The notes below the pieces were generated by a model. The model did not search any database. It was not told where the DNA came from and saw nothing but the letters and a program-made list of their open reading frames with translations. The translations under genes were made by a program, and so were the position numbers. Positions 1-15,570 of a DNA stretch of 44,579 nucleotides are shown here, one piece after another; the first letter of the stretch is position 1, and the number at the start of each line of letters is the position of its first letter. The stretch covers positions 1 to 44,579 of the forward strand of contig CAYJLK010000006.1 in the NCBI GenBank assembly GCA_964371445.1, read 5' to 3'. Source of the stretch: an uncultured Candidatus Saccharibacteria bacterium. Its GTDB lineage: Bacteria; Patescibacteriota; Minisyncoccia; Phycocordibacterales; Phycocordibacteraceae.

Positions 1-588
1 CTGACGCATGCCGGTGGGTAGAGCCATGAGAAGCATATCGTGGACCAGTCCATGAGCATTCGATAGCAGCCGCTGACACTCCTTCTCTGACAAGAATTTT
101 GTCTCCGCCGGGGGACATTTCAGCCAAACGATCTTTGGTGGTGCTCCGTCTAGCTCAAGCCAGTCGTACGCCGTCACGAGGCACTTTCTTAACATCGTCA
201 GATAGTTGTTGATCGTTTTGTGCTTGATACCCCTCGCTTGCTCGTGCGTCTTATATCGCTCGATGTCGCGGGCGGTGATTTCGGCAACAACTGTCCTGCC
301 GAAGAACGGTACGAGCGAACCTTTCAGCCCCCACTTCTTATTCCGCTGCTCCGATGGCTTATTGTTCACTAAGGCGTACTCGTTATACCAACGCCAGCCA
401 AATTGTTCGAACGTTTCATTGCGAGCCGATACTTGTTCAATGGGTTCACCTCGCATCAGCCGGTGTCGTAGCGTAGCTTCATAAGCACGTGCTCCCGCCT
501 GTGTGTTCTCTGGGCTGCGTTTTCGATATCTGAGGTGATTGAACCTAAAGTCCACCCACCACGTTGTTCTTAATTGTCGTGCGCTCAT
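1..588 (-). CDS. Tyrosine recombinase / phage-type integrase, N-terminal 196 codons (C-terminus lies beyond the left edge of the window)
   Basis: Absent from the ORF track because it runs off the window. My translation of the reverse strand from the ATG (complement of 586-588) reads MSARQLRTTWWVDFRFNHLRYRKRSPENTQAGARAYEATLRHRL...ITARDIERYKTHEQARGIKHKTINNYLTMLRKCLVTAYDWLELD...FLSEKECQRLLSNAHGLVHDMLLMALPTGMRQ. This is a SAM-like core-binding domain followed by the box-I TGMR arginine region. Confidence 0.85.
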   Translation of the reverse strand, partial: MSARQLRTTWWVDFRFNHLRYRKRSPENTQAGARAYEATLRHRLMRGEPIEQVSARNETFEQFGWRWYNEYALVNNKPSEQRNKKWGLKGSLVPFFGRTVVAEITARDIERYKTHEQARGIKHKTINNYLTMLRKCLVTAYDWLELDGAPPKIVWLKCPPAETKFLSEKECQRLLSNAHGLVHDMLLMALPTGMRQ

Positions 589-595
589 ATTTTAT

Positions 596-796
596 TTAGC
601 CGATGGATTCCACCCGCACTCGTTGCAGATACGACATTAGATCGCTTTTGGAAAAACGAATGCTACCTCCGATCTTGATGAACGGAATACTCCGTTGCTG
701 TAGCAGACGTCGCACTCCGGACACAGAGATTCTAAAGAGCCTCGCCACTTCGGCGATGGTCAATATCTCGGGTGTCGGACTGGAATCAACCGACAT
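596..796 (-). CDS. Excisionase-family helix-turn-helix DNA-binding protein
   Basis: 66-aa ORF. LTIAEVARLFRISVSGVRRLLQQRSIPFIKIGGSIRFSKSDLMSYL matches the MerR-like excisionase HTH pattern. It sits immediately upstream of the integrase on the same strand. Confidence 0.8.
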   Translation of the reverse strand: MSVDSSPTPEILTIAEVARLFRISVSGVRRLLQQRSIPFIKIGGSIRFSKSDLMSYLQRVRVESIG

Positions 797-1469: not shown

Positions 1470-2927
1470 TCAAGGAATTTGTATCTTGCTGATAGTTACA
1501 ACGCGGTCACTGTGAGACACGATCTGTATACCGGTCTCCTCAAGTGCGGTCTTCAGCCGGTTAATCTCTCTCATCAGCGCCGAAGGATTCTCCGGCAGCT
1601 GTTTATCCACAATCATTTCGTTCAATGCCAAATCCTTGAGTCGTTTAAGGAGCATCGTGGCTGTTCCTTCCCACGTATCACCCTCTATCTCGAGAAAGGC
1701 TACGATAAGCACGGCTACGACGTTGTCTCGCACCACCTCTGCACTCTGTGAGTTGATGTTGCGTGAGTAAGCCTGTAGGAATGCCTTCATGCCATACCCG
1801 AGCGACTCGGCTATTGAACAACCCCACAACGCAAAGTCGGCCATCCTCGGAAGTTCGTCCACCTTGATATGAGGTCGTAGCGTCATAGCTTGCGACACTG
1901 TATCGAAGATTGAGCCGAGAATCTTTGGACGCGCCGCTTCGAATTCAGCCATAAGATCGTATTCCTGCTTGTGGTGGCCTTTGGCAATTCGTTCAAGTTC
2001 GATAAGCAAACTCCGTTCAAGAAGGTCTGCACGGTTGCTGGCTATGTTGATGCCGTTTATACACACGTTCGCCATTACATAACGAATCACGTCTGAGTCG
2101 TCAGAGTAAAGTTCGCGCTTGCTGAATCCGCTGCCAGTTATCGCGCGACAAAGAAGGTCGGCGACCGAGTCGGGGATATCAGACACATTATCGAAAGCTA
2201 AATACGAGTGATGACTGAGCTGCTGAGCCAGTTCGCTCTCATGACGCGTTAAGCTCACAACTTCAATCTTGGATGGGTCAATAAGTCGGCGCGTAACTCG
2301 CGAGAGCGACGATTTGGCGCTACCTTGCGGACCGTAAATATAACAAGCGGGATGGGGCCATCCCGGAATGAACGATGCAATCAGGTGTACTAAGAAAAGC
2401 ATCTGCTGATCGGAGTCTGTGATGTTCACGAATCGCAGCACATCCTTCACGTCCCCTCCACTTACCGGTGGGACTTGGGGAGCGAGATGCGAGAAGCGAT
2501 GGAAGAGCAGAGGGACTTTGGTCTCAACGCTCCACCCGTCTTCTGTTATCTTCACGGCTCTCCATTTCGAATCCGCGAGGTCGTACCATATTGCATCAGG
2601 CGTTTGGGCGACTCGATTAAAGAGTCGATGCTCCTCGCGTTCGTTGATTGCCATCCCCTCGAGCAGACCGATTGCGTCTTTCATAGCCTCTCGTCCCGGC
2701 ACTGTCTTCCCGTTGGTCCATTTGTAATAAGCGTTGGCAAGCCAGCGCGTGAAGGCACCGCTCCGGCACGGCCATATCTCCAAGTGATCTTCGATGGGAA
2801 TCTGTACGTGAGCGGCACCGTATTCATCTTTGAATAGAACGATGTCACGATTCCCCAGTACCATTCTGACGAGGAGGGTGGCCTGCGACGGACCCTTCGG
2901 CTTATTGTCGGAAGCCATGATCTGCAT
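1470..2927 (-). CDS. P-loop NTPase, probable replication (primase/helicase-associated, SF3-like) protein of the element
   Basis: 485-aa ORF with a Walker A-like YGPQGSAKSS and a Walker B-like YLAFDNVSD. Its position next to int/xis and the iteron-like repeats fits a replication role. The exact family cannot be assigned by eye. Confidence 0.65.
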   Translation of the reverse strand: MQIMASDNKPKGPSQATLLVRMVLGNRDIVLFKDEYGAAHVQIPIEDHLEIWPCRSGAFTRWLANAYYKWTNGKTVPGREAMKDAIGLLEGMAINEREEHRLFNRVAQTPDAIWYDLADSKWRAVKITEDGWSVETKVPLLFHRFSHLAPQVPPVSGGDVKDVLRFVNITDSDQQMLFLVHLIASFIPGWPHPACYIYGPQGSAKSSLSRVTRRLIDPSKIEVVSLTRHESELAQQLSHHSYLAFDNVSDIPDSVADLLCRAITGSGFSKRELYSDDSDVIRYVMANVCINGINIASNRADLLERSLLIELERIAKGHHKQEYDLMAEFEAARPKILGSIFDTVSQAMTLRPHIKVDELPRMADFALWGCSIAESLGYGMKAFLQAYSRNINSQSAEVVRDNVVAVLIVAFLEIEGDTWEGTATMLLKRLKDLALNEMIVDKQLPENPSALMREINRLKTALEETGIQIVSHSDRVVTISKIQIP

Positions 2928-3426
2928 CGTTTATCGCGCTATCCACGCCATTTGTGGGCGCTTCCGGGGTGTTCTTGTGTATATGCATTTTCTTATCAGA
3001 AGTGTCCACAAATGGCGCAAGTCGCGCGAACACACCCGACTCCATTTCAGCCAATACTGGCTTCGGCAGTCCCTGATCCGCGAATACAGTGTGGCTTGCA
3101 AAGATTTCCCATAACTTGGATCTCTCGTAATACGGAGTGCCGTCACCGGTCAGGTTCCATTCTTGGAATGCGCTCCATGCACGCGCTACGTTAGCTTTGT
3201 TCTCGAACGAAGCGTCCGACAAATACCATATGAACTTATTCGCATTTGTCTTGCGAACAGCCCTTTCGTATTCCAAGTATTCTGCCTCGGCTTCTTCAAC
3301 CGAATCCGGCACGGGCCCCAGAGACATATAGTCGTTGCGTGGGGTAACGCGTGGAGGTCGTTTATTTTCATTTGTATTTGAAGTGCCGTTAGAGGCGATA
3401 AGATCTTTCATGATCGTTGAATGCAA
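2902..3426 (-). CDS. Hypothetical protein, first gene of the minus-strand rep module
   Basis: 174-aa ORF with protein-like composition. It overlaps the start of the downstream P-loop gene by 26 nt. No motif recognised. Confidence 0.5.
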   Translation of the reverse strand: MHSTIMKDLIASNGTSNTNENKRPPRVTPRNDYMSLGPVPDSVEEAEAEYLEYERAVRKTNANKFIWYLSDASFENKANVARAWSAFQEWNLTGDGTPYYERSKLWEIFASHTVFADQGLPKPVLAEMESGVFARLAPFVDTSDKKMHIHKNTPEAPTNGVDSAINDADHGFRQ

Positions 3427-3700: not shown

Positions 3701-3944
3701 GGTCGATCAGATCCAGTTCGACATGATAGTATTTATATACGTGCTGTTAGAGAGGCCTAAACCTCGCGACTTATGGGTCGTGGGGCATGGCCGAAAACCA
3801 GTCAAGAGTAAAGACCCCCATCATAGGGATTGCCTTGACTGGTCCTGCTGAGAAATCGGCAGTGGATGGCCCTAAAAAGCTGTCACCCTGTGGTGGGGAT
3901 CTTTGCTACCTCCATCCAGGATTATTGGCCTCAGCTCAATATCC

Positions 3945-4193
3945 ATGGAACCGCACACGATAAACACAAGACATGAAAAAAGTGAATGGGCGTCAACAAG
4001 TAGTCTCTGGACAGGTATAGCTTCTATCTTTCTATGGGGTTTCAGTATCGTTCCTATCCTAGCCATCATCTTCGGGATAACCGGGATTGTCCGCAAGGAG
4101 GACAGTTGGAAAGCCACTGTCGGTATTTTGTTGGGGATAGTCTTTCTAATCGTTCGGGTCTACGCCGGAACGAATCCGTTCATGTCAATTTGA
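3945..4193 (+). CDS. Small integral membrane protein (DUF4190-like appearance)
   Basis: The ORF track has 3903-4193; I prefer the internal ATG at 3945 (MEPHTINT...). There are two hydrophobic helices: GIASIFLWGFSIVPILAIIFGITGIV and ATVGILLGIVFLIVRVYAG. Confidence 0.5.
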   Translation: MEPHTINTRHEKSEWASTSSLWTGIASIFLWGFSIVPILAIIFGITGIVRKEDSWKATVGILLGIVFLIVRVYAGTNPFMSI

Positions 4194-4211: not shown

Positions 4212-4337
4212 ATGACATGCACACAGCATCAGTGGGTCTTTGATAAGAGCGATGATGCGGGACATATGTACTGGCATTGTAAGAACTGTGGAGAAACGAA
4301 AGTGACCACCCCAAAATATGAACCCCCAAAAGATTAA
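4212..4337 (+). CDS. Possible 41-aa zinc-ribbon-like micro-protein
   Basis: My translation is MTCTQHQWVFDKSDDAGHMYWHCKNCGETKVTTPKYEPPKD, with a CxxH...HCxxC ligand pattern. It overlaps the next ORF's start by 20 nt. It is below the ORF-track length cutoff. Confidence 0.3.
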   Translation: MTCTQHQWVFDKSDDAGHMYWHCKNCGETKVTTPKYEPPKD

Positions 4338-4683
4338 ACAGGCATCAGTGTGGGTTGGCACCGTCCTTGCATGGTCGGCTCTTGGGTTGTTCGTCATACT
4401 CATCGGCATAGCTTTATTCGCACGGCATGAAGAGCCCTCACCGCAATTAACGGCGTCGGCTGGTAGTGCGGCTTCGTCAACAACTGAAGCTACATTGATT
4501 GAGCTTGAGAAATCGTTTAAATGCCCGAATGATTACGCATCACCTGAAGAATATCTGAATGCGGCGGCTAAATTTGTTCACGACTTCAATCAAATCATCC
4601 CCAATTCAGCCAGTGCAGATTTGCTTGAGTATCGGCAACAACTTCTTGAATCGCATCAGTGCGAGCCCTCAAAATGGCTGTAG
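4318..4683 (+). CDS. Membrane-anchored hypothetical protein
   Basis: 121-aa ORF with one N-terminal TM helix (VWVGTVLAWSALGLFVILIGIALF) followed by a soluble tail. Confidence 0.5.
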   Translation: MNPQKIKQASVWVGTVLAWSALGLFVILIGIALFARHEEPSPQLTASAGSAASSTTEATLIELEKSFKCPNDYASPEEYLNAAAKFVHDFNQIIPNSASADLLEYRQQLLESHQCEPSKWL

Positions 4684-4742: not shown

Positions 4743-7718
4743 GTGCGCTTAATTAATATGAAAGCTTCGCCTATATTAAATTCTCCTTACTTTGAGCCCC
4801 TACAGCACTTTGGCTCCGATGATCGCGGTCTTACGGATGAAATAATTAGTTCCCGACGTCCAAGCTCGTCATACGTACCGGTTCCCCGTCAAAAGACGAA
4901 ACAACTACAGCTCGCATTTAATACTGCGGAGGGTGCATTCGGAAAAGAATTACAGCGAGAGAACGACTTCGTCAACAAGATCAGAGCCAAAGTCAGCGAA
5001 TGGCGTTCGCAGGGTTATTCGGGAGTGACAAAGACTACACGAGATTTGCTTACGTACTGGAAAGATGAAACACGGGAGAATAAATTGTTCTTCTGTCAGA
5101 TCGAGGCGATGGAAACACTTATTTACATAAATGAGGTGGCCGAAAAAGCAGGGGAGCATTGGATATTGAATGAACTGAAGACAGCGAATAAGGAGGCGAA
5201 CCCGGAGCTATTTCGTATTGCACTCAAGATGGCCACAGGGTCAGGAAAAACTGTCGTTATGGCGATGCTCATTGCTTACAATACGCTCAACAAGATCCGC
5301 TATCCACAAGACACCCGATTCACTGATGCGTTTGTCATTGTTGCCCCAGGTATCACTATTCGGGACCGATTGAATGTACTGCAGCCGAATAATCCAAACA
5401 ACTACTATAAAGCCAGGGGTATCGTTTCGTATCAAGATTTCGAGCTATTGCAACAGGCCGTTATTGTCATTATCAATTATCACCAGCTTGAGTTGCGTAC
5501 GAATCAGCGCTTTCAAATGGGTGCCGTGATGAAAGCTGCCGGTCTTATCGATGAGCAGGCCGTCAAAGAGAGTCCGAACGCTATGGTAAATCGAGTATTC
5601 AAGGCGGTGGCAGGTAAAGCACGTGTCCTCGTCATAAATGATGAAGCCCATCACTGCTATCGAGAGAAACCGACCGAGGAAAAGTTAGCGGGAGAGGAGA
5701 GAAAGGAAGCAGATGAGAATAACGAAGCGGCGAGAGTGTGGATTAGTGGTCTCGAGACCTTGTCGAAGAAGATGAATGTCAATGCAGTTATTGATTTGTC
5801 TGCCACGCCGTACTTTCTCCGTGGTTCAGGATACGATGAAGGCAAGCTTTTCCCGTGGGTAGCATCCGACTTCTCGCTTCTGGACGCACTTGAATCTGGA
5901 GTTGTGAAGATCCCCAGACTGCCGGTCACAGCCGATAACATCACCACGGGAGATGAACCGGAATTTCGTAATCTATGGTTGCACATCAGCGATAAACTTC
6001 CTAAAAAAGGAAAGAAGACCGGCGACTATAATCTCGACACTGTCCATTTACCGAATGAACTCCACGAAGCACTCGAATCACTCTATGGTAGTTACGAAGT
6101 CAATTATCGTTTGTACGAGAAGTACCGAGAGAAGGATCCAGCGGTGATGCCGCCGGTAATGATTGTTGTCTGTAATAACACGACGGTCTCTGAATTGGTA
6201 TACCGGTGGATCGCAGGATTTGAACGGGAGACGGCAAGTGGCGCACTTAAGATAGAGAAAGGTAAACTTGAGATTTTCCGCAATGAGGACGGCGTTAGGG
6301 TTCTCGATAAACCAAACACACTTCTCATCGACAGTGCGCAACTAGAGAGCGGAAAGAGTATTGATGACGAATTTAAGCGTATTTTCGCCAGAGAGATCGA
6401 GGATTTCAGAAAAGAATACCGCCGCCGGTTCCAGGGTCGTGATGAACCAACGGATGAAGATCTTTTGCGGGAAGTCATGAACACTGTCGGCAAGCCGGGC
6501 AAGCTTGGTGAAAATATTAAATGCGTCGTCTCGGTATCGATGCTTACCGAAGGATGGGATGTAAACACCGTGACGCATATTCTTGGCATCCGTGCTTTCT
6601 CTACCCAGCTTCTATGTGAACAAGTAGTTGGACGAGCATTGCGCCGTGTTGATTACGCCGTAAATGAGGACGGCCTTCTGAGTCCAGAGTATGCAGAGGT
6701 ATACGGTGTTCCATTCAGCTTCTTGCGCCCTCCTGAGGGTCCTACTCCGCCACAGCCTCCGAAAGTTATCCATAGAGTCCACTCAATTGAAGGAAGAGAA
6801 AAATATGAAATTACCTACCCTCGTGTGGACGGATATCGTTATGAAATTGATGAGGAAAGACTCGCCGCTAAATTCACGGATGAATCTAAGACCATTATCG
6901 AGAACGAACCTACAGAGGTCGTTATGGAGGGTCCTATCGGTGAAGAAGTAAGGGAGGGTCTCGAAAAAATTAAGGAACGCCGTGAGGGTGAAGTGATTAT
7001 GAGACTTACGCAGGGACTTCTGCGTCGCTATTTTATTGATGCAGATGGTAATGAAAGGTATTGGCTCGGCCCGCAGTTGATGCATATCGCTGAAGAATAC
7101 GTTAATAAGCATGTCGTATTGAAAGATCGGATGGTGATCGGGTATCTAACTGTTGGTGAGTATTTCTCTGGTGCGCTCACGAAGATACATCAAGCAATCG
7201 TCACAGAAAACCTAGCCGGTGGAAAAGAAAAGAAGGTTCTACCTATTCTCACTCCATACGACACCATCGGGTCTACACGCTATGTCGATTTCATCACAGC
7301 CAAAGAGGTGCAAGAGACAGTTAAGAGCCATATTAATTATGTTGTCGCCGACACTGAACAGTGGGAGCAGGGCGTAGCGAAGAGACTAGAGCAAATGCCG
7401 GAAGTGATTGCGTATGTGAAGAACCAGAATCTCGGCTTCACGATTCCGTATGAACATCAGGGAATCACTCACCAATACACACCAGACTTTGTTGCGAAAA
7501 TAGAAATGCCGGACAAGCAGATACTAAATCTGCTGATAGAAGTAACCGGAAAGAAGGACGACAAGAAGATGCTTAAAATTAAGACTACTCGTGAGCTATG
7601 GGTACCGGCAATAAACAATGCCGAGAGATTCGGCCGATGGGACATACTCGAGATACAGGACATCCATGAGACGCAGAATCTTATCCGTGCGGCTATGGCC
7701 GGAGTAAGGGTACAATAG
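4743..7718 (+). CDS. res: Type III-like restriction endonuclease, Res (helicase-nuclease) subunit
   Basis: SF2 helicase motif I is MATGSGKTVV, motif II is VINDEAHHCY and motif VI is QVVGRALRR. The C-terminal PD-(D/E)xK-like element is TPDFVAKIE...LLIEVTGKK. The N-terminus (NSPYFEP..HF) is typical of this endonuclease family. The real start is probably the ATG at 4758 (MKASPIL...) rather than the GTG at 4743. Confidence 0.9.
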   Translation: MRLINMKASPILNSPYFEPLQHFGSDDRGLTDEIISSRRPSSSYVPVPRQKTKQLQLAFNTAEGAFGKELQRENDFVNKIRAKVSEWRSQGYSGVTKTTRDLLTYWKDETRENKLFFCQIEAMETLIYINEVAEKAGEHWILNELKTANKEANPELFRIALKMATGSGKTVVMAMLIAYNTLNKIRYPQDTRFTDAFVIVAPGITIRDRLNVLQPNNPNNYYKARGIVSYQDFELLQQAVIVIINYHQLELRTNQRFQMGAVMKAAGLIDEQAVKESPNAMVNRVFKAVAGKARVLVINDEAHHCYREKPTEEKLAGEERKEADENNEAARVWISGLETLSKKMNVNAVIDLSATPYFLRGSGYDEGKLFPWVASDFSLLDALESGVVKIPRLPVTADNITTGDEPEFRNLWLHISDKLPKKGKKTGDYNLDTVHLPNELHEALESLYGSYEVNYRLYEKYREKDPAVMPPVMIVVCNNTTVSELVYRWIAGFERETASGALKIEKGKLEIFRNEDGVRVLDKPNTLLIDSAQLESGKSIDDEFKRIFAREIEDFRKEYRRRFQGRDEPTDEDLLREVMNTVGKPGKLGENIKCVVSVSMLTEGWDVNTVTHILGIRAFSTQLLCEQVVGRALRRVDYAVNEDGLLSPEYAEVYGVPFSFLRPPEGPTPPQPPKVIHRVHSIEGREKYEITYPRVDGYRYEIDEERLAAKFTDESKTIIENEPTEVVMEGPIGEEVREGLEKIKERREGEVIMRLTQGLLRRYFIDADGNERYWLGPQLMHIAEEYVNKHVVLKDRMVIGYLTVGEYFSGALTKIHQAIVTENLAGGKEKKVLPILTPYDTIGSTRYVDFITAKEVQETVKSHINYVVADTEQWEQGVAKRLEQMPEVIAYVKNQNLGFTIPYEHQGITHQYTPDFVAKIEMPDKQILNLLIEVTGKKDDKKMLKIKTTRELWVPAINNAERFGRWDILEIQDIHETQNLIRAAMAGVRVQ

Positions 7719-7725
7719 GAAACAT

Positions 7726-10185
7726 ATGGCGAGGACAAAGATTGCACTCCCGACGACTGCTGCGCCAGTAGAGAGTTACAAACACACTGGCAAGCGTGTG
7801 CGCATTCCAACACAAGAGGAGTCAGTTAAGCTTTCGCCTCGGGATAAACGCCCGGAGAAAAAGAAATACGCATATGATCCATCTCTTGATCCACGACTTG
7901 AATGGGCCGGTAAATCTGAAGCCGGAGAAGAGTTCAATGTAACGACTGTACCTATCTATGTGCAGGAAAAGATCTCACCAGAGGCACTCATCGCTCGTCT
8001 GAAGGCTGGTACCAACGATAGTTCGCAAACACTCCTTTTTGGTGAAACTGCTCACGAACAGATGGGCAAGGCGATTGACTTCTATAAACACGAAGACAAC
8101 TGGCAGAACCGTATGGTACTCGGTGACTCGCTGCTAGTGATGAATTCATTGCTGGAAAAGGAGGGTATGAGGGGTAAGGTGCAGTGCGTGTATATCGACC
8201 CACCCTACGGAATTAAATTCGGTTCAAACTGGCAAGTCTCCACTAGAAAAAAGGAGGTCAAGGATAATAAAATCGATGATCTCATTCGTCAGCCAGAACA
8301 GATTAAGGCATTTAGAGACACATGGGAGCTTGGGATTCATTCGTACTTGTCTTATCTGCGTGACCGCCTTATTGCAGCCAGAGAGTTACTAACCGAGAGC
8401 GGTTCCTGCTTTGTGCAGATCAACGATGAAAACGTGCATCTCTTGCGGAATCTTCTAGACGAAGTTTTTGGCGCCGAGAATTTTGGTTCAATGATTACCT
8501 ACAGAACCAGAAGTCCACTTGGTACAACAGGATTGGCAAAAGCCTGTGACTATCTGATCTGGTACTATCGTGATGCGGAAAAGGCAAAAATTAGGAATCT
8601 CTATATCCCTAAGTCTATACGTGATGACGAGTATTTTGATTCCATAGAGCTAGCTGACGGCACCCGGCGAAGAATGACTAGAGATGAGAGAAATGGTTTG
8701 ATCCCTCTTCCTCAAGATGCACGTGTATATTCAGCACAAGGGCTATTATCCTCCGGACGAACGGAGAGCTGTGTTTTCCCATACAAGTACGGAGGGAAAG
8801 AGTATATGCCGGGTGGAAATCGCTCATGGCGTACACATCCTTCTGGTATGAAAAGACTTGATGAGAAAAAACGTCTTATCGGCCTTCAGACTGCATTACG
8901 TTTCGTACAGTATTTAGACGATTTTCCTTTTAAAGAATATTCCAACATTTGGTACGACACTTACGGAGAAACTGATCGGGTATACGCCGTTCAAACAAAC
9001 ACTGAAATTATCCAGCGAGCTTTGCTCATGAGTACTGACCCGGGGGACATAGTTGTTGATCCAACTTGTGGTTCTGGCACGACTGCTTATGTTGCCGAAC
9101 AGTGGGGTCGCCGCTGGATTACCATAGACACATCACGTGTTGCATTGGCACTGGCTCGAACACGACTTATGACCGCAAAATTCTCCTACTTTAGGCTCAA
9201 GGAGGAAAAGAATATCTCGGCGGGGTTTGAGTACAAGACTGTCCCGCACGTTACTCTTAAATCTCTTGCGAATGATGAACAGCCTGATCAGGAGGTGTTA
9301 TACGATCAGCCAATTGTGAATAAAGACATCGTGCGTGTGGCAGGTCCAATGACAGTGGAGTCGCTTTCGCCGCATCGAATATCAGATGCACAGGAGATGG
9401 TATCGTCGGAACGATTCGTGGAGACGGTGATTACAAACCTACGCACAGCAGGCGTTCAGACAGGACAGAAGGGCGCTCGGGTAGAATTCGAGAACCTAGA
9501 CATCCTTCCGTCCGGCCCAGAAGTTCAGGCCGCCGGTGAATATATAACAACTGAAGGCCTTAAGAGAGTGGCTGTTGCTGTTGGTCCCGAATTCGGAAGC
9601 GTCGATGATGATTTCATCATGAGTGCCATAGCCGTCGCAAAAAGATTTGCGAAACTCTTGGTCGTAGCGGCGACATCGTTTGATGCTTCCGCCTTCTCCG
9701 TCGCAGAGGAACAGAACGGACTTCGTGTCATGCGAGTGAAGATAAATCCCGACCTCTCAATGGGAGATCTGCTTAAAAAGACCGGCTCTGGCAACCTCTT
9801 CATTGCGTTCGGGGAGCCGCAGGTAGAAGTGAAGGAGAAAAAGGACGGCATCACTGTGGAAGTGAAGGGTGTAGACGTTTATGATCCGGTAAAGAGCGAA
9901 ATTCGTTCATCTGGAGACGGCGATCCGGAACACGATATTGCGGCATGGTTCATTGATACTAACTACAACGGAGAAGCATTCTTCGTCTGCCATGCTTACT
10001 TCCTGGGAGGCAATAAACCCTACGAGAAGCTCCAGAAGGCGCTTAAGGCCGACATACCGGAGGAGGTGTGGGACGAGCTCTACTCGACCGTCTCTAGGCC
10101 GTTTCCGAAGCCGACGACCGGTAAGATAGCGGTTAAAGTCATCAACCATTACGGTGACGAGGTGATGAAGGTCATCTCCATTTAA
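7726..10185 (+). CDS. mod: Type III-like Mod DNA methyltransferase (N6-adenine/N4-cytosine class, beta motif order) with a long C-terminal extension
   Basis: Motif IV (VYIDPPYGIKF) precedes the AdoMet motif I (VVDPTCGSGTTAYVAEQWGRRWITID). The start lies 7 nt after the res stop. About 330 aa follow motif I, ending ...GKIAVKVINHYGDEVMKVISI. Confidence 0.9.
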   Translation: MARTKIALPTTAAPVESYKHTGKRVRIPTQEESVKLSPRDKRPEKKKYAYDPSLDPRLEWAGKSEAGEEFNVTTVPIYVQEKISPEALIARLKAGTNDSSQTLLFGETAHEQMGKAIDFYKHEDNWQNRMVLGDSLLVMNSLLEKEGMRGKVQCVYIDPPYGIKFGSNWQVSTRKKEVKDNKIDDLIRQPEQIKAFRDTWELGIHSYLSYLRDRLIAARELLTESGSCFVQINDENVHLLRNLLDEVFGAENFGSMITYRTRSPLGTTGLAKACDYLIWYYRDAEKAKIRNLYIPKSIRDDEYFDSIELADGTRRRMTRDERNGLIPLPQDARVYSAQGLLSSGRTESCVFPYKYGGKEYMPGGNRSWRTHPSGMKRLDEKKRLIGLQTALRFVQYLDDFPFKEYSNIWYDTYGETDRVYAVQTNTEIIQRALLMSTDPGDIVVDPTCGSGTTAYVAEQWGRRWITIDTSRVALALARTRLMTAKFSYFRLKEEKNISAGFEYKTVPHVTLKSLANDEQPDQEVLYDQPIVNKDIVRVAGPMTVESLSPHRISDAQEMVSSERFVETVITNLRTAGVQTGQKGARVEFENLDILPSGPEVQAAGEYITTEGLKRVAVAVGPEFGSVDDDFIMSAIAVAKRFAKLLVVAATSFDASAFSVAEEQNGLRVMRVKINPDLSMGDLLKKTGSGNLFIAFGEPQVEVKEKKDGITVEVKGVDVYDPVKSEIRSSGDGDPEHDIAAWFIDTNYNGEAFFVCHAYFLGGNKPYEKLQKALKADIPEEVWDELYSTVSRPFPKPTTGKIAVKVINHYGDEVMKVISI

Positions 10186-10376
10186 ATCCGAAGAATGAAC
10201 GAAGAACTCTTTGAGCTCGCAAAGGACAACGACCTAAGTCTTGACGAAGCGCAGGAGGTCCAAGATCTCGCCGATGAACTTAGTGTAGACATAGACGATG
10301 CGTATGAGATCTGGGAGGCGCAGTAGAGCAGCACAGCAGAAACGGCGACCACATGGATCGCCGTTAGCGCTTTGAC

Positions 10377-10958
10377 TTAGCTCTTCAGACTCGCGATGGC
10401 TTCACTGGCCTCGCTCTTTGTAAGACTGTCGATATTCGCCATCCAACTCTCCCTTTGATCATTCGGAGCGCCCAAAAGGAGCGTCTTCAGATAATCTAGC
10501 TGTTTAAGCGTCGCTGGCTCGTGCGTCTCGTCTTGGGCTATGGCATACGTCTCGCCGGGTTGTCCCTGTGCGTCCTCCAGCCGCATGACATCTAGGGTCT
10601 TGCACGCTGAATTGATGGCCGACATGAGCGCGCCATTGAGAGAGGAGTAAAGAGCCCTGTCGATGCCCTTGTTGAGCCGAGACAGGGCCGTGGACCCGTG
10701 TCCGAGCCCAATCGGCTTGCCATCCATACGAAGCTCGCAAGTAACTGCGATAAGTCCGGGCGTCTTAAGTGCCGACATAGTGCCATGATCCGGAGAGAAC
10801 GAGGCGGAGAGGCTGTATTTTGCCTGACACAGCTTGGCGAGCATCTGACGGACTGGATGCGTCGCGTCCTGGGTGTCCATCGCCTTCTCCCGCATCTGTT
10901 GCATCGGATGCGGCTGATAAGGAGAGCGGACCGGACGAGGTTTGTAAGTTGTTTGCAT
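10377..10958 (-). CDS. Hypothetical protein (start codon ambiguous)
   Basis: 193-aa ORF with protein-like composition. The C-terminal stretch is ATLKQLDYLKTLL...SLTKSEASEAIASLKS. Alternative in-frame Met codons include M61 at 10778. The 5' 194 nt overlap the upstream SymE-like ORF in another frame. Confidence 0.55.
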   Translation of the reverse strand: MQTTYKPRPVRSPYQPHPMQQMREKAMDTQDATHPVRQMLAKLCQAKYSLSASFSPDHGTMSALKTPGLIAVTCELRMDGKPIGLGHGSTALSRLNKGIDRALYSSLNGALMSAINSACKTLDVMRLEDAQGQPGETYAIAQDETHEPATLKQLDYLKTLLLGAPNDQRESWMANIDSLTKSEASEAIASLKS

Positions 10959-11118
10959 GGTTAACGATTCTTAAGGTGATAACGCCCCTCTGGTAGACGA
11001 CCTCTATGGGTGCGCCTATAGCGAAGCCCATGGTAGCTAGCAGTTGATTCGCCAGCTTTACCATCGGTGTTCGATCGGTCCCCGGGGCGCGGGTGACGGT
11101 AATTCGCTTGGTGGTCAT
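10765..11118 (-). CDS. SymE/AbrB-fold (SpoVT-AbrB-like) toxin-family protein
   Basis: The N-terminal RITVTRAPGTDRTPMVKLANQLLATMGFAIGAPIEVVYQRGVITLRI fits the SymE pattern (R.ltV...P.i.L.G.WL..aGF..G..v.V....G.i.L). The C-terminal ~60 aa are low-complexity and overlap the next ORF. Confidence 0.5.
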   Translation of the reverse strand: MTTKRITVTRAPGTDRTPMVKLANQLLATMGFAIGAPIEVVYQRGVITLRIVNHANNLQTSSGPLSLSAASDATDAGEGDGHPGRDASSPSDARQAVSGKIQPLRLVLSGSWHYVGT

Positions 11119-11414
11119 ACGACCTTCTCCACCTGTTTTTTGTGGAACAGTAGAACGCTGCGGGGATAGCGCATCTGTACTTCTCCCTTGTCATTCTTCA
11201 TCTCTATCACGGTGACGGAGCGGAACGCCTTCTCACCGCGCTTCACTCGGTAGCCGTAGTTAGCCCAACAGATAAAGGGCATAGCGTCACAGCTGGGGTC
11301 AAAGGATTCGGCGCACTCGTCACCGTATCTCTCCCGGACCTGTTCGCGCACAAGCTCGTACGTCTTCTCCGAACCACGGTATGGGCTCAGGAGCTTCTCT
11401 TGAATTGACTGCAT
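11115..11414 (-). CDS. ArdC-N (DUF1738)-like small ssDNA-binding / anti-restriction-type protein
   Basis: 99-aa ORF. FICWANYGYRVKRGEKAF resembles the F..W...G..VkKGEK core of the ArdC N-terminal domain. An ATGA stop/start overlap with the SymE-like ORF suggests translational coupling. Confidence 0.45.
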   Translation of the reverse strand: MQSIQEKLLSPYRGSEKTYELVREQVRERYGDECAESFDPSCDAMPFICWANYGYRVKRGEKAFRSVTVIEMKNDKGEVQMRYPRSVLLFHKKQVEKVV

Positions 11415-11873: not shown

Positions 11874-11901
11874 TTGCACATGGAATCGAAAGGTTCATAC
11901 T
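11874..11901 (+). promoter_or_regulatory. Candidate sigma70-like promoter giving a (near-)leaderless mRNA for the 70-aa ORF
   Basis: TTGCAC (11874-11879), a 16-nt spacer, then CATACT (11896-11901). The ATG at 11909 lies only 7 nt past the -10 box and no Shine-Dalgarno is present. Confidence 0.3.
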
Positions 11902-11908
11902 GTGGGAC

Positions 11909-12121
11909 ATGGCAGAGAAAATAGAAGCAACCACTACAGTGGTAGCCACACCGAATGAGACTACCGTTGCAGTCCGCGTGCTCAATACATTTGTCGATAC
12001 CGTTATGGAGGACACTGATCTTGTGACTGTAGGGGCGCGTCTCAAGACAGCTATCATTGACCGTAACGATCTTTCCGAAGCGACGCTCCGGACGGCTATG
12101 TTCGGCGATAGCAATACATGA
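11909..12121 (+). CDS. 70-aa hypothetical protein, translationally coupled to the downstream ABC ATPase
   Basis: Sequence is MAEKIEATTTVVATPNETTVAVRVLNTFVDTVMEDTDLVTVGARLKTAIIDRNDLSEATLRTAMFGDSNT. An ATGA overlap at 12118-12121 joins it to the next ORF. No known motif. Confidence 0.5.
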   Translation: MAEKIEATTTVVATPNETTVAVRVLNTFVDTVMEDTDLVTVGARLKTAIIDRNDLSEATLRTAMFGDSNT

Positions 12122-14595
12122 TTAAAGTCGAACGGATCATCATTCAAGAGTTCCGAGGTATCCGAAATCTCACACTCGAGCTCGGAGGGAAAAACTTCGC
12201 TATATGTGGACCAAACGGGACAGGCAAAAGCGGTGTGGTCGATGCTCTTGAATTCGCCCTAACGGGAAGCATTTCTCGTCTAACAGGCAAAGGTCGTGGT
12301 GCATTGTCGGTTAAGACTCATGGGCCACATGTTGATAGTCGAGGTACCCCGGAGCGAGCACAGGTAACTTTAGATGTCGTTATACCTTCGCTCGACAACA
12401 AGAGTGTCCGTATCGTACGCAACGTTAAAACTCCTAATGCTCCCACCATCACGCCCAGCGACCCCAGTGTTAGAGCGGCCCTACTTCATGTTGAGGAACA
12501 CCCAGAGTTTGTCCTTTCGCGTCGTGAAATAATTAAGTATGTACTTGCAGAACCAGGCGAGCGCTCCAAGGAACTCCAAGCACTCCTACGGCTCGATGAA
12601 CTTGAGACGGTTCGAACCGTGCTTCAGAAGATAGCGAATGCATCTGAAAAGGAACTCAAACCGCTTGAGCAAGCGAACACTTCAGCCGTAGAAGCTCTTA
12701 CTCGGGCGTTGGGTATTACTGAAGCGACACAAGAAAGTGTATTGACCGCTGTGAATGAGAAGAGAGCTGTGCTTTCACTGCCAGCCCTCACGAAACTTGA
12801 TCCCGCCACATCCATTCGTGACGGACTCGAAAGTCTCCCCGGCGCCGCACCGTCCCGAGTACCAAAGGTACAGGCCAAGGCTGACTTGGTCGCAGCCAGA
12901 GCAGCTCTAGATGTCCTGTTCTCACCTGCGTTTGAAAGAGAGAAGGGTCTGGTTGCTGACGCTGTATCGAAATTGAAAGGTAATGAAGAAAACCTGAAAA
13001 AAGTGTCTCAAGACGATTTGCTACGTGCTGCGCTCGAACTTTTTAATGAGAAGACATGTCCTGTATGCGAAACGGAATGGGATCCGGAGTCCTTCAGAGC
13101 AATCGTAACCGCGCAGCGAGCAAGACTCGATGCTGCGACGAAAGAACGAGCCGCTGTTGAATCACTCATCGCACCTATTATCACCAAGATTGGAAACGTA
13201 CGCGCGGCTCTAAACGTACTCATGCCCTACGGTCCGCTTTTCCTCGCGCCAGTGGATGTCACACAGATAGAAAAATACTGCAATCAGCTCTCAGTGAGGA
13301 TTACACAACTACGGAAGTTCCTACCGCTTGACGAGACTCTCGCGTCCTTGAACATCGGTAGCGAAGAGTCCGGACAAGTTTCATCCGTGCTTGATAATAT
13401 CGGCGTGGCTATAGAAGCAATCCCGGACCCCACTGACCGCGATGGTGCCCGTGAGTATCTCGTCCTTGGGCAGGAACGTTTGCAGGCATACAGAATAGCA
13501 GCGGCACGGTATAAGGTGGCAAAGAAACAGGTAGCCGTATCAAAACGAGTGTTCGAGATTTATGGCGTGGCCACAACCACTGCACTCGACGCAATTTACA
13601 AGCAGGTAGAAGCGGAGTTTCGCGGGTACTATCGTTTAATCAACAGCGACGACGAAAGCACGTTTGAAGCACAGCTCACCCCGTCTATAGGCAAACTTGG
13701 GTTCGAAGTGAACTTCTATGGCAGGGGGTTCTTCCCTCCGGGGGCTTACCACAGCGAAGGACATCAAGATGGCATGGGTCTTTGCTTATACCTAGCCCTC
13801 ATGAAGCATCTCCTCGGAAAGGACGGATTTACATTCGCTGTACTCGACGATGTTCTCATGTCCGTCGACAAAGGACACCGCCGTGAAGTATGTAAACTTC
13901 TTCTGTCCGTTTTCCCAAATACACAGTTTGTTCTCACCACACATGACGGTGTGTGGTTGCGTTATATGAAAACGACGGGGCTCATTGAATCGCAAGCCGG
14001 GATAGAATTTCGTAAATGGAACGTCGATTGCGGACCCTCAGAATGGAGGACCGTGGATACCTGGTCTGAAATAGATGACCTTGTCTCAAAGAACGATGTG
14101 CGTGGAGCGGCCGCGTTGCTTCGGAATCAACTTGAACACCTTGCAGCGGAGTACTGCGCCCTCCTTGGGGGGCGCGTCACCTATCAGGGTGATGGCCACT
14201 ACGAGCTTGGTGATCTCCTGCCGGGCGCTGTGGGTGCACTAGGAGCTCTATTTAAGAAAGCAAAGGCAGCAGCAAATAGCTGGGGCAACACAGAACTTGT
14301 CGCTGTAATCGATGAACAAGACAAGGCGTTCGCGACATCGGTAACGGCTGCTCTAGGTGAGCAGTGGCAGATTAACCCGCTCATTCACTACAACGAATGG
14401 GCAAATCTTGAACAGAATGATTTTACTCCCGTTGTAGCGGCATTCAAAGACCTAACGGCGCGCTTCGTCTGTGCAAAATGCAACGGGCTGATGTACATAA
14501 CCTATTCGAATGGGGTGAAGGACACCCTCCGTTGTAGCTGCTCCGCGCTTAGTCTTAGTTTGGTTCCAAAGAAAGCAGCGATAAAGCAAATCTGA
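12118..14595 (+). CDS. Rad50/SMC-like ABC ATPase with zinc-hook CxxC and extra C-terminal domain (RloC/PrrC-like candidate)
   Basis: Walker A is CGPNGTGKSG in the typical MIKVERIIIQEFRGIRNLTLEL N-terminus. A long helical insert carries CPVCETEW (13057-13068). The signature-like motif is SEGHQDG, Walker B/D-loop is FAVLDDVLMSVD and the H-loop is LTTHD. A further ~200-aa C-terminal domain contains LRNQLEHLAAEY (R-x3-E) and a terminal CAKCNG...CSCS zinc-ribbon-like motif. Confidence 0.85.
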   Translation: MIKVERIIIQEFRGIRNLTLELGGKNFAICGPNGTGKSGVVDALEFALTGSISRLTGKGRGALSVKTHGPHVDSRGTPERAQVTLDVVIPSLDNKSVRIVRNVKTPNAPTITPSDPSVRAALLHVEEHPEFVLSRREIIKYVLAEPGERSKELQALLRLDELETVRTVLQKIANASEKELKPLEQANTSAVEALTRALGITEATQESVLTAVNEKRAVLSLPALTKLDPATSIRDGLESLPGAAPSRVPKVQAKADLVAARAALDVLFSPAFEREKGLVADAVSKLKGNEENLKKVSQDDLLRAALELFNEKTCPVCETEWDPESFRAIVTAQRARLDAATKERAAVESLIAPIITKIGNVRAALNVLMPYGPLFLAPVDVTQIEKYCNQLSVRITQLRKFLPLDETLASLNIGSEESGQVSSVLDNIGVAIEAIPDPTDRDGAREYLVLGQERLQAYRIAAARYKVAKKQVAVSKRVFEIYGVATTTALDAIYKQVEAEFRGYYRLINSDDESTFEAQLTPSIGKLGFEVNFYGRGFFPPGAYHSEGHQDGMGLCLYLALMKHLLGKDGFTFAVLDDVLMSVDKGHRREVCKLLLSVFPNTQFVLTTHDGVWLRYMKTTGLIESQAGIEFRKWNVDCGPSEWRTVDTWSEIDDLVSKNDVRGAAALLRNQLEHLAAEYCALLGGRVTYQGDGHYELGDLLPGAVGALGALFKKAKAAANSWGNTELVAVIDEQDKAFATSVTAALGEQWQINPLIHYNEWANLEQNDFTPVVAAFKDLTARFVCAKCNGLMYITYSNGVKDTLRCSCSALSLSLVPKKAAIKQI

Positions 14596-14599
14596 CGCT

Positions 14600-14797
14600 G
14601 TGCCTATGACTTGCAACTCTTCGGTGCTGGGAGAAAAAGAAAGACTCGAACTTCGTGAGATCCTCCGTTTATCCATTGGAGACTACGCGAGTAAATTCTC
14701 CGAAGAGGACTTAGACGATCTTGGAGTAACACTACTCGAAGCAACGGCTATAGCTCTCAAAGCGCGCGCCGGGCAACATAAAGCCCCCGCTTTGTAG
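14600..14797 (+). CDS. 65-aa hypothetical protein
   Basis: ORF starting 4 nt after the ATPase stop. Acidic helical sequence ...LELREILRLSIGDYASKFSEEDLDDLGVTLLEATAIALKA. No motif. Confidence 0.35.
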   Translation: MPMTCNSSVLGEKERLELREILRLSIGDYASKFSEEDLDDLGVTLLEATAIALKARAGQHKAPAL

Positions 14798-15040
14798 GAG
14801 GGGAGATTATGCTTCACCATTATCACTTCGCCTGTACTGCTCTGGTTAATAATCTCGCAAGCAATCCGGCTCGACTGCCGGTTGTTGCCTACGGGTTGCC
14901 CAAAAAGTGATAAAAGGTGATCAGAATTGATGACTGGTGAGTATGATTGAGAATCTACAATTTCGCAGGTATAACCTTGTGTTTACTCCTTAATCCAGTA
15001 ATTGCTTGCTCGATTAGCTGTTGGCCCTAATGCCTCTCTC

Positions 15041-15067
15041 GCCGGTTCGATTCCGGCCCCCGCAACA
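15041..15067 (+). repeat. Candidate attR: 3'-terminal T-arm plus acceptor of an initiator tRNA-fMet, with no 5' half
   Basis: GCCGG-TTCGATT-CCGGC-CCCCGCA-A-CA has the same layout and near-identical sequence to the classical bacterial initiator tRNA 3' end (...GGTTCAAATCCGGCCCCCGCAACCA). No matching CGCGGGG 5' strand or D-arm lies upstream. Confidence 0.6.
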
Positions 15068-15072
15068 AGATT

Positions 15073-15108
15073 GGAAAAGGCGCCATAAGGCGCCTTTTCC
15101 TTTACTTG
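15073..15108 (+). terminator. Rho-independent terminator (native terminator of the disrupted tRNA locus)
   Basis: A perfect 12-bp stem GGAAAAGGCGCC / GGCGCCTTTTCC with an ATAA loop, followed by TTTACTTG. Confidence 0.6.
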
Positions 15109-15495: not shown

Positions 15496-15570
15496 GCCGC
15501 GCTCTGCATCTGCCTCGATTCTTATTTCCCGCCCCCGTGCGCGGGGGCGGGAATTGAACCTGACAGTGGA

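Follow-up and report, generated by a model that had tools for sequence, protein, structure and literature searches.

A computational analysis was undertaken of a locus in a 44,579-nucleotide stretch of DNA (contig CAYJLK010000006.1 of assembly GCA_964371445.1, positions 1 to 44,579; hereafter the window) from an uncultured Candidatus Saccharibacteria bacterium. It followed up an original prediction, made from the sequence without database searches, in which the locus was read as encoding a Rad50-like ATPase of the RloC/PrrC kind, accompanied by small ORFs of possible regulatory function and lying near restriction-modification (R-M) genes of type III. Here, an open reading frame (ORF) of 70 amino acids (aa; 11909–12121) is followed by the gene of a Rad50/SMC-type ATP-binding cassette (ABC) ATPase of 825 aa (12118–14595), the ATG of which overlaps the stop codon of the small ORF as ATGA, as was confirmed on the sequence. 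The ORF map has two further short frames downstream, namely orf65 (65 aa, 14600–14797), with a GTG start 4 nt past the ATPase stop, and orf33 (33 codons, 14809–14910), with a Shine-Dalgarno sequence, GGAGGGGAG, in front of it. All four frames are co-directional, on the plus strand. As had been predicted, no Mre11/SbcD-type phosphoesterase gene adjoins the ATPase gene, either in the ORF map, in the clustered loci of relatives or in a Pfam scan of the neighbouring genes. The small upstream ORF and the ATPase gene were found to form a widespread two-gene module on mobile DNA, which is undescribed.

Conservation of the ATPase, its small partner and its C-terminal domain

The ORFs and all of the motifs originally quoted for the 825-aa protein were found in their places by the ORF map and a motif check. 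These are a Walker A motif GPNGTGKSG (aa 31–39; 12208–12234), a zinc hook CPVC (aa 314–317; 13057–13068), a signature SEGHQDG (aa 546–552; 13753–13773), a Walker B motif FAVLDDV (aa 573–579; 13834–13854) and an H-loop TTHD (aa 607–610; 13936–13947), a set which is far beyond chance. The ATPase head is composed of an N-lobe with the Walker A motif (aa 1–156; 12118–12585; Pfam AAA_23/SMC_N and AlphaFold2) and a C-lobe with the signature, Walker B, D-loop and H-loop (aa 517–642; 13666–14043; Pfam, conservation and AlphaFold2). The two lobes are separated by a kinked, helical, coiled-coil-like insert (aa 160–508; 12595–13641; AlphaFold2 secondary structure), in which an ascending arm (aa 160–308) and a descending arm (aa 323–508) flank a central hook loop (aa 309–322) carrying C314 and C317. 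This arrangement of an SMC/Rad50 head split by an insert with a CxxC hook at its centre, as first proposed, was supported by Pfam, by the AlphaFold2 model and by an alignment of 43 homologs with identities down to 29%. The Walker A motif, C314-P315-x-C317, SEGHQD, D577-D578 and T607-T608-H609 are invariant in these homologs, and so all of the ABC motifs (Walker A, signature, Walker B/D-loop and switch histidine) are present and invariant in the family. The acidic pair of Walker B (D577-D578; 13846–13851) is an invariant Asp-Asp throughout the family, compared with the usual Asp-Glu.

Comparison with known proteins places the ATPase part closest to Lamassu LmuB and Rad50. In Pfam, the protein was matched by SMC_N (aa 4–619) and AAA_23 with E-values of ~1e-14, and the isolated insert segment was matched by Rad50_zn_hook at E 0.0018, under the gathering score. 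A full-length AlphaFold2 model (predicted local distance difference test, pLDDT, 84.5) was used in a Foldseek search, where Rad50 7zr1 (E 3e-13), SMC heads, SbcC and, among the top matches, Lamassu LmuB 9hqx/9hqu (E ~1e-10) were retrieved. Archaeal Rad50 heads ranked first when a family profile was searched against PDB sequences (E 7.8e-13). The best PADLOC match was LmuB PDLC03859 (E 9.1e-19 over aa 1–618, 66 bits, for a model with no curated cut-off in the library), and this match persisted at E 7.4e-10 without the P-loop, with the alignment running through head, arms and hook. The NCBIfam equivalogs for Rad50, SbcC, RecN and RecF gave only 13–38 bits against cut-offs of 172–1420, and the ATPase is therefore not a housekeeping repair protein; clustering with chromosomal repair proteins of the SbcC/RecN type was not seen.

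The 70-aa ORF upstream is a conserved companion of the ATPase, as had been suspected. BLAST clustering of all ORFs identified a 58–77-aa ORF with an ATGA overlap onto the ATPase gene in 21 of the 28 genomic loci (18 + 3), and inspection of four further loci for which upstream DNA was available (L016, L021, L025 and the distant L026) showed an equivalent ORF of 55–67 aa in each. The small partner is also annotated by RefSeq on three plasmids and was called on three metagenome contigs, and wherever the upstream DNA of a related locus is intact, an ORF of 55–79 aa ends at or overlaps the ATPase start. The partners, mostly mildly acidic, align over ~50 residues and have a C-terminal ALF-type motif ('ALF/MFG'), and their pattern suggests about three short helices. 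No match to the small partner was found in Pfam, PADLOC, NCBIfam or PHROGs. The ATGA stop/start overlap implies translational coupling with the ATPase, and on the alignments and gene order the previously unremarked small ORF is a genuine and obligate partner. In four loci (L004, L008, L014 and L020) it starts ~10–20 nt past, or overlaps, an upstream gene of an R-M cluster, a tight spacing that suggests co-transcription there.

Other expectations about the short ORFs did not hold. A leaderless promoter had been proposed for the 70-aa ORF; a sigma-70 consensus scan found no site upstream of 11909. The 65-aa and 33-codon frames had likewise been put forward as possible parts of the system. When these were searched by tblastn against 34 related loci, orf65 gave no match even at E ≤ 10 and orf33 gave only noise, and neither matched Pfam, PADLOC, NCBIfam or PHROGs. 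To judge from these searches, both are probably local and not parts of the module.

The ATPase head is followed by an extra C-terminal domain (aa 648–825; 14059–14592; AlphaFold2 and conservation), and its three proposed features, an R-x3-E arrangement, a later histidine and a terminal Cys4 ribbon, were all found to be conserved in the 43 homologs. The R-x3-E segment, LRNQLEHLAAEY (aa 668–679), contains RNQLEH, and its R669 and E673 (14122–14136) are located on the first long helix, one helical turn apart in the AlphaFold2 model. N753 and H757 are situated in an 'IHYNEWAN' block (14383–14406; consensus (A/L)(I/V)H(Y/F)NEWAN), in and past a low-confidence loop of the model. The zinc ribbon (14470–14541) is formed by C785 and C788 (CAKC, aa 785–788) and by C806 and C808 (CSC, aa 806–808). 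R669, E673, N753 and H757 are invariant, the four terminal cysteines are nearly so, and D692, S721, W722, W750 and N759 are also nearly invariant. The domain modelled alone by AlphaFold2 from 17 sequences (pLDDT 82, predicted template modelling score 0.77) has two strands completing the head, a bundle of long helices and a three-stranded Cys4 zinc ribbon. RNQLEH was considered as an Rx4H motif of the HEPN type and was ruled out, as position 674 is H, Y or F across the family; the C-terminal domain is therefore without the canonical HEPN Rx4H.

Searches with the C-terminal domain alone gave zero matches in Pfam, PADLOC and PHROGs, nothing below E 0.2 when its profile was compared with PDB sequences, and nothing at E ≤ 0.001 when its model was compared with PDB and BFVD by Foldseek. 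The top Foldseek matches were mostly helical bundles, the best of these at E > 0.05, together with short eIF2-beta/eIF5-like ones that, going by the model, probably correspond to the zinc ribbon. The profile of the domain did, however, retrieve 924 proteins (660 at E ≤ 1e-10) from 1.84 billion cluster representatives, these being clusters at 50% identity. In the best 150 of the 924, the domain always ends a protein of ~815–825 aa or the match is a fragment, and so the domain is specific to this architecture.

Distribution and genomic context of the family

More than 1,400 proteins matched the ATPase at E ≤ 0.001, and the best 120 of these were all full length. The family is large and phylogenetically patchy, with the gene present in species-level genomes of Alphaproteobacteria, several CPR (candidate phyla radiation)/Patescibacteria lineages, Bacteroidota, Acidobacteriota, Desulfovibrio and Clostridia. 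It is carried on 31 plasmid records, and no homolog was found in 50,697 phage records. Members are labeled in public records only as 'AAA family ATPase' or 'RecF', and the plasmid members have been given the Gene Ontology (GO) term 'double-strand break repair' by RefSeq by inference. None of the models in PADLOC v2, Pfam or NCBIfam is dedicated to the family, and no paper describing it was found. In three members (L022, 6001–8453; L023, 3–2252; L028, 5935–8455), frameshifts or stops break the gene up into two to four ORFs; these are pseudogenes or errors in the assembly of metagenome-assembled genomes.

The only conserved neighbour of the ATPase in 34 loci is the small ORF, and whatever output activity the module has must therefore reside in these two genes. 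Beyond it, the surroundings are varied. The commonest Pfam families in 111 large neighbouring ORFs were N6_N4_Mtase (5), ResIII (5), N6_Mtase (4) and Eco57I (3), with integrase, UvrD-type helicases, Methylase_S, GmrSD_N, patatin, recombinase and TrwB occurring more rarely. The neighbourhoods of the pair hold methylases of types I, II and III as well as Res, GmrSD and patatin genes. In several loci the pair adjoins genes for integrases, serine recombinases, ArdC, relaxase or a type IV secretion system (T4SS), and full-length ArdC genes flank it in L001, L033 and the P0009 contig.

In the window, the predicted type III-like R-M pair was recognised as a Res gene (4743–7718, plus strand; Pfam ResIII) and a Mod gene (7726–10185, plus strand; PADLOC MTase_III, E 1e-202; Pfam N6_N4_Mtase). 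The end of Mod is 1.7 kb from the small ORF and, as had been stated at the outset, 1.9 kb from the ATPase start, with three minus-strand genes between Mod and the ATPase pair. Type III R-M genes adjoin the pair in about 8 of the 28 loci, in at least five clades. Res/Mod homologues are adjacent in L004, L008/L009, L014, L020 and L026 as well as in the window, and in L004, L008, L014 and L020 they are in the same operon as the pair. On a neighbour-joining tree of the ATPases, the R-M-linked loci occupy at least five separate branches, and this scatter indicates that the linkage is recurrent and was not inherited once. A type III R-M pair is, then, a recurrent but not a universal neighbour of the module.

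Relation to known ATPase systems and possible function

As the two genes alone are universally conserved, and as they occur patchily on mobile DNA among defence genes, a self-contained defence-type switch is the most economical explanation of the module. Our preferred reading, to which we would give about an even chance of being correct, is that of a self-contained two-gene module of the defence type, carried on integrative and conjugative elements, in which a Rad50/LmuB-like sensor with a fused C-terminal output acts together with a small subunit. The description that suits the module best is that of an ATPase like those of Lamassu and Rad50, to which an output or sensor domain of its own, at the C-terminus, and a minimal partner have been added. 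Under this reading, the ATPase would probably dimerise by means of its zinc hook and its ATP-engaged heads, and its Rad50-like part would sense DNA and act as a switch, set off by DNA ends or by other abnormal or foreign DNA. The C-terminal domain, with its R-E-N-H residues and zinc ribbon, would be the output, most likely an effector that binds or cleaves nucleic acids, and would be kept off by the ATPase until a trigger is received. The helical protein of ~60 aa would be an obligate subunit with the part of an adaptor or brake, comparable to LmuC or to the Rad50-binding tail of Mre11/SbcD. Where the pair is located in a type III R-M operon, it could provide a second layer behind restriction. 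A more ambitious form of the proposal is conceivable, although we consider it rather doubtful: that this is a stand-alone immune system, in which a zinc-hook sensor is fused to a new effector without a known nuclease relative and is held in check by the ~60-aa subunit, and that it has been recruited repeatedly to type III R-M operons as a back-up.

A number of observations weigh against the preferred reading. A defence function is a prediction from sequence and gene context. Sequence, profile and fold searches detected no resemblance of the C-terminal domain to any nuclease or other known domain, the family alignment shows no canonical HEPN Rx4-6H in it, and the pointer to its putative enzymatic role is the invariant R/E/N/H set. 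In the 34 loci no LmuA-like effector gene was found beside the ATPase, the small partner matched no PADLOC LmuC model, and the LmuB profile match is only moderate. ATP turnover may be slow given the Walker B sequence; as its acidic pair is D-D and not D-E, the protein may hydrolyse ATP slowly and act as a switch rather than a motor. About 70% of the loci are without adjacent R-M genes, with the pair alone in most, and in several loci there are conjugation or ArdC genes nearby, a setting equally compatible with a role in establishment or anti-defence.

The known system most like the module is Lamassu (DdmABC/ABC-3C). LmuB is likewise an SMC/Rad50-like ATPase, its coiled coil is short and kinked and has a CxxC hook in some members, and Lamassu is also mobile-element cargo found in the context of defence islands. 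A small protein is encoded directly upstream of the ATPase in both; in Lamassu operons this is LmuC, which together with the C-terminal domain of LmuA binds the hook region (PMC12663957; bioRxiv 10.1101/2025.03.14.643221). The differences are that the partner here, at ~60 aa, is smaller than the LmuC proteins described and that the ATPase has a C-terminal domain of ~180 aa which is absent from LmuB. The head has its closest counterparts, both in solved structures and in sequence, in Rad50 and SbcC, which too have a zinc hook at the apex of the coiled coil. By operon analogy, the gene for the short helical protein occupies the position that would encode the C-terminal, Rad50-binding part of SbcD/Mre11 (PMC12663957). 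Unlike Rad50/SbcC, the protein has much shorter arms, no nuclease partner and an extra C-terminal domain, and it is sporadically distributed, on mobile elements, with scores far under the equivalog cut-offs. In OLD, Gabija GajA, Septu/retron PtuA, PARIS AriA, HEC-04 and MADS MAD3, an ABC ATPase sensor similarly governs a nuclease-type output, often within or beside R-M-type systems. These systems lack a long hook-bearing insert and have recognisable effectors (TOPRIM, HNH and others), and their profiles gave only weak, head-level matches confined to the P-loop and Walker B regions.

The likeliest of the rival explanations, which we nonetheless regard as unlikely, is that the module is a Lamassu derivative without a built-in killer. 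Its C-terminal domain would be non-catalytic and would serve in sequestration, oligomerisation or DNA binding, as if the C-terminal domain of LmuA had been fused to LmuB, and output would come from other proteins, for example by recruiting or licensing Res, or from the clamping or bridging of DNA. LmuB being the best profile match agrees with this, as does the lack of a nuclease-like fold match for the C-terminal domain; nucleic-acid binding is, besides, common among zinc ribbons. In four loci the pair is operonic with type III R-M genes. Short LmuA C-terminal domains are bundles of five to six helices, and a Lamassu clade without an effector domain exists (PMC12663957). On the other hand, most loci have neither R-M genes nor another candidate effector nearby, yet the R/E/N/H residues are invariant across phyla, and in a PDB fold search the C-terminal domain was unmatched to the solved LmuA or LmuC chains.

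That the protein is a true RloC/PrrC anticodon nuclease, the kind to which it was first likened, is in our estimate improbable. The C-terminal domain would here be a diverged HEPN-type tRNase with the triad R669-E673-H757, regulated by the Rad50-like region and hook, and unleashed upon inhibition of R-M or DNA damage. RloC has been defined by its ABC motifs, an insert with a CxxC hook and a C-terminal Arg-X3-Glu-X36-52-His triad, and its members are 658–897 aa in size, some being linked to type I or type III R-M loci (PMC2610378). The ATPase of the window resembles this closely in architecture, as an ABC ATPase, a CxxC hook insert (with C314-P-x-C317 invariant in the loop between the long helices) and a C-terminal domain of ~200 aa are combined in one polypeptide of ~800 aa, the 825 residues of which are within the RloC range. 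Both the R-x3-E and the downstream histidine are invariant, the linkage to R-M genes is recurrent, and the modelled core appears to be a helical bundle as in HEPN, in which the first long helix bears R/E and the histidine lies where the last helix region is predicted to start. In a survey of HEPN domains, fusions of ABC and HEPN were reported to have arisen several times, with many linked to R-M, and some HEPN families were found to have non-canonical sites (PMC3710099). An RNase role of the C-terminal domain is therefore conceivable.

The details of the sequence, however, depart from RloC. The spacing from E673 to H757, the only invariant histidine, is 83 residues as against 36–52, and the residue before the histidine is Ile/Val (Ile in the window), where RloC usually has Ser. 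The helical bundle has no conserved Rx4-6H, H674 being variable, and although many HEPN structures have been solved, none was matched significantly in the Foldseek search; a solved nuclease domain of RloC/PrrC was not found for comparison. Neither the whole protein, its C-terminal half nor the C-terminal domain alone matched Pfam AAA_13, which we take to be the RloC/PrrC-type profile. Similarly, the PADLOC matches of the whole protein (best 25 of 89 families), of its C-terminal half and of the sequence with the P-loop taken out included no model named RloC or PrrC, of a kind that we assume the library to contain. Homology to RloC/PrrC was accordingly rejected on Pfam, NCBIfam and PADLOC scans, for which the full-length sequence, a version without the P-loop, the C-terminal half and the C-terminal domain were used. 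The family also has an obligate small upstream partner, with which RloC has not been described, and LmuB is nearer to its ATPase part than is anything of the RloC kind. What stands of the RloC/PrrC reading is an analogy in architecture and R-M linkage, whereas membership of the RloC/PrrC family is not supported by the sequence comparisons.

It is equally improbable that the module is a non-defence factor, that is, a Rad50-like tether which processes, protects or segregates DNA in transfer or integration for the maintenance or establishment of mobile elements, or which counters SMC-type defences of the host: the pair is often on conjugative plasmids or integrative elements beside ArdC, relaxase, T4SS, integrase and serine recombinase genes, and the GO term given by RefSeq would agree, but there is no Mre11/SbcD-like nuclease partner, the equivalog thresholds of SbcC, RecN, RecF and Rad50 are far from reached, and the module is not bound to one class of element or transfer machinery and occurs repeatedly within R-M operons and among defence genes. 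Defence cargo is common on mobile elements, and a mobile location is therefore no argument against defence.

ATPases of the SMC/Rad50 type are emerging as a major class of sensors of foreign DNA, as in Lamassu, Wadjet and RloC, and the coupling of sensing to output is known for few of them. With a sensor and a putative output in one polypeptide and a single tiny partner, the module would be a compact system in which to study how a hook-bearing ATPase controls an effector, and both the C-terminal domain and the small partner represent unannotated folds. With its repeated insertion into type III R-M operons, the module would add to PrrC a second, independent case in which restriction is paired with an ABC ATPase as back-up.

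Surroundings of the pair in the window

A partial gene runs off the left end of the window (1–588, minus strand), with weak matches, under the Pfam cut-offs, to a tyrosine-integrase N-terminal domain, and beside it is an excisionase-type HTH_17 gene (596–796, minus strand). On account of these two genes, the R-M genes and the ATPase pair appear to ride on an integrative element. The mobile location that had been predicted is in agreement with this and with the occurrence of relatives on plasmids and integrative elements. At the other side of the pair, the sequence 'cgccGGTTCGATTCCGGCccccgcaaca' (15036–15100) resembles the T-arm and 3' acceptor strand of a tRNA. The integrase-like gene, the HTH_17 gene and this tRNA-like fragment together suggest an island of ~15 kb or more that contains the R-M genes and the pair, and the T-arm-like fragment may be an att remnant that marks where the integrated element ends on the right. 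A truncated tRNA at 15036–15070 was called neither by ARAGORN nor by Rfam at permissive settings, and the boundary of the island is therefore tentative. The tRNA-like fragment is followed by a bidirectional terminator with a 12-bp stem (15073–15100), and a second T-arm-like 15-mer is found on the minus strand at 15546–15560.

Several smaller genes of the island are of note. For two ORFs of the island, 485 and 174 aa long (1470–3426, minus strand), there were zero matches in Pfam and PHROGs. The three genes between mod and the pair (10377–11414, minus strand) are orf193, which has a weak DUF3072 match and recurs beside the pair in L032 (34% over 197 aa); orf117, with a weak SymE/AbrB-like match; and orf99, which has no family match and recurs near the pair in L008 and L014. 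Directly past mod there is a very acidic ORF of 43 aa (10195–10326, plus strand), a homolog of which (37% over 39 residues) is located directly past the ATPase gene in L008/L009 (8462–8644). This ORF may be a small accessory of the R-M and ATPase cluster. Also inside the island is a LOOT RNA (Rfam RF03000; 3754–3884, plus strand), identified with 70.5 bits against a gathering score of 46.4, which lies just upstream of small membrane-like ORFs (3903–4193 and 4318–4683) and the type III res gene.

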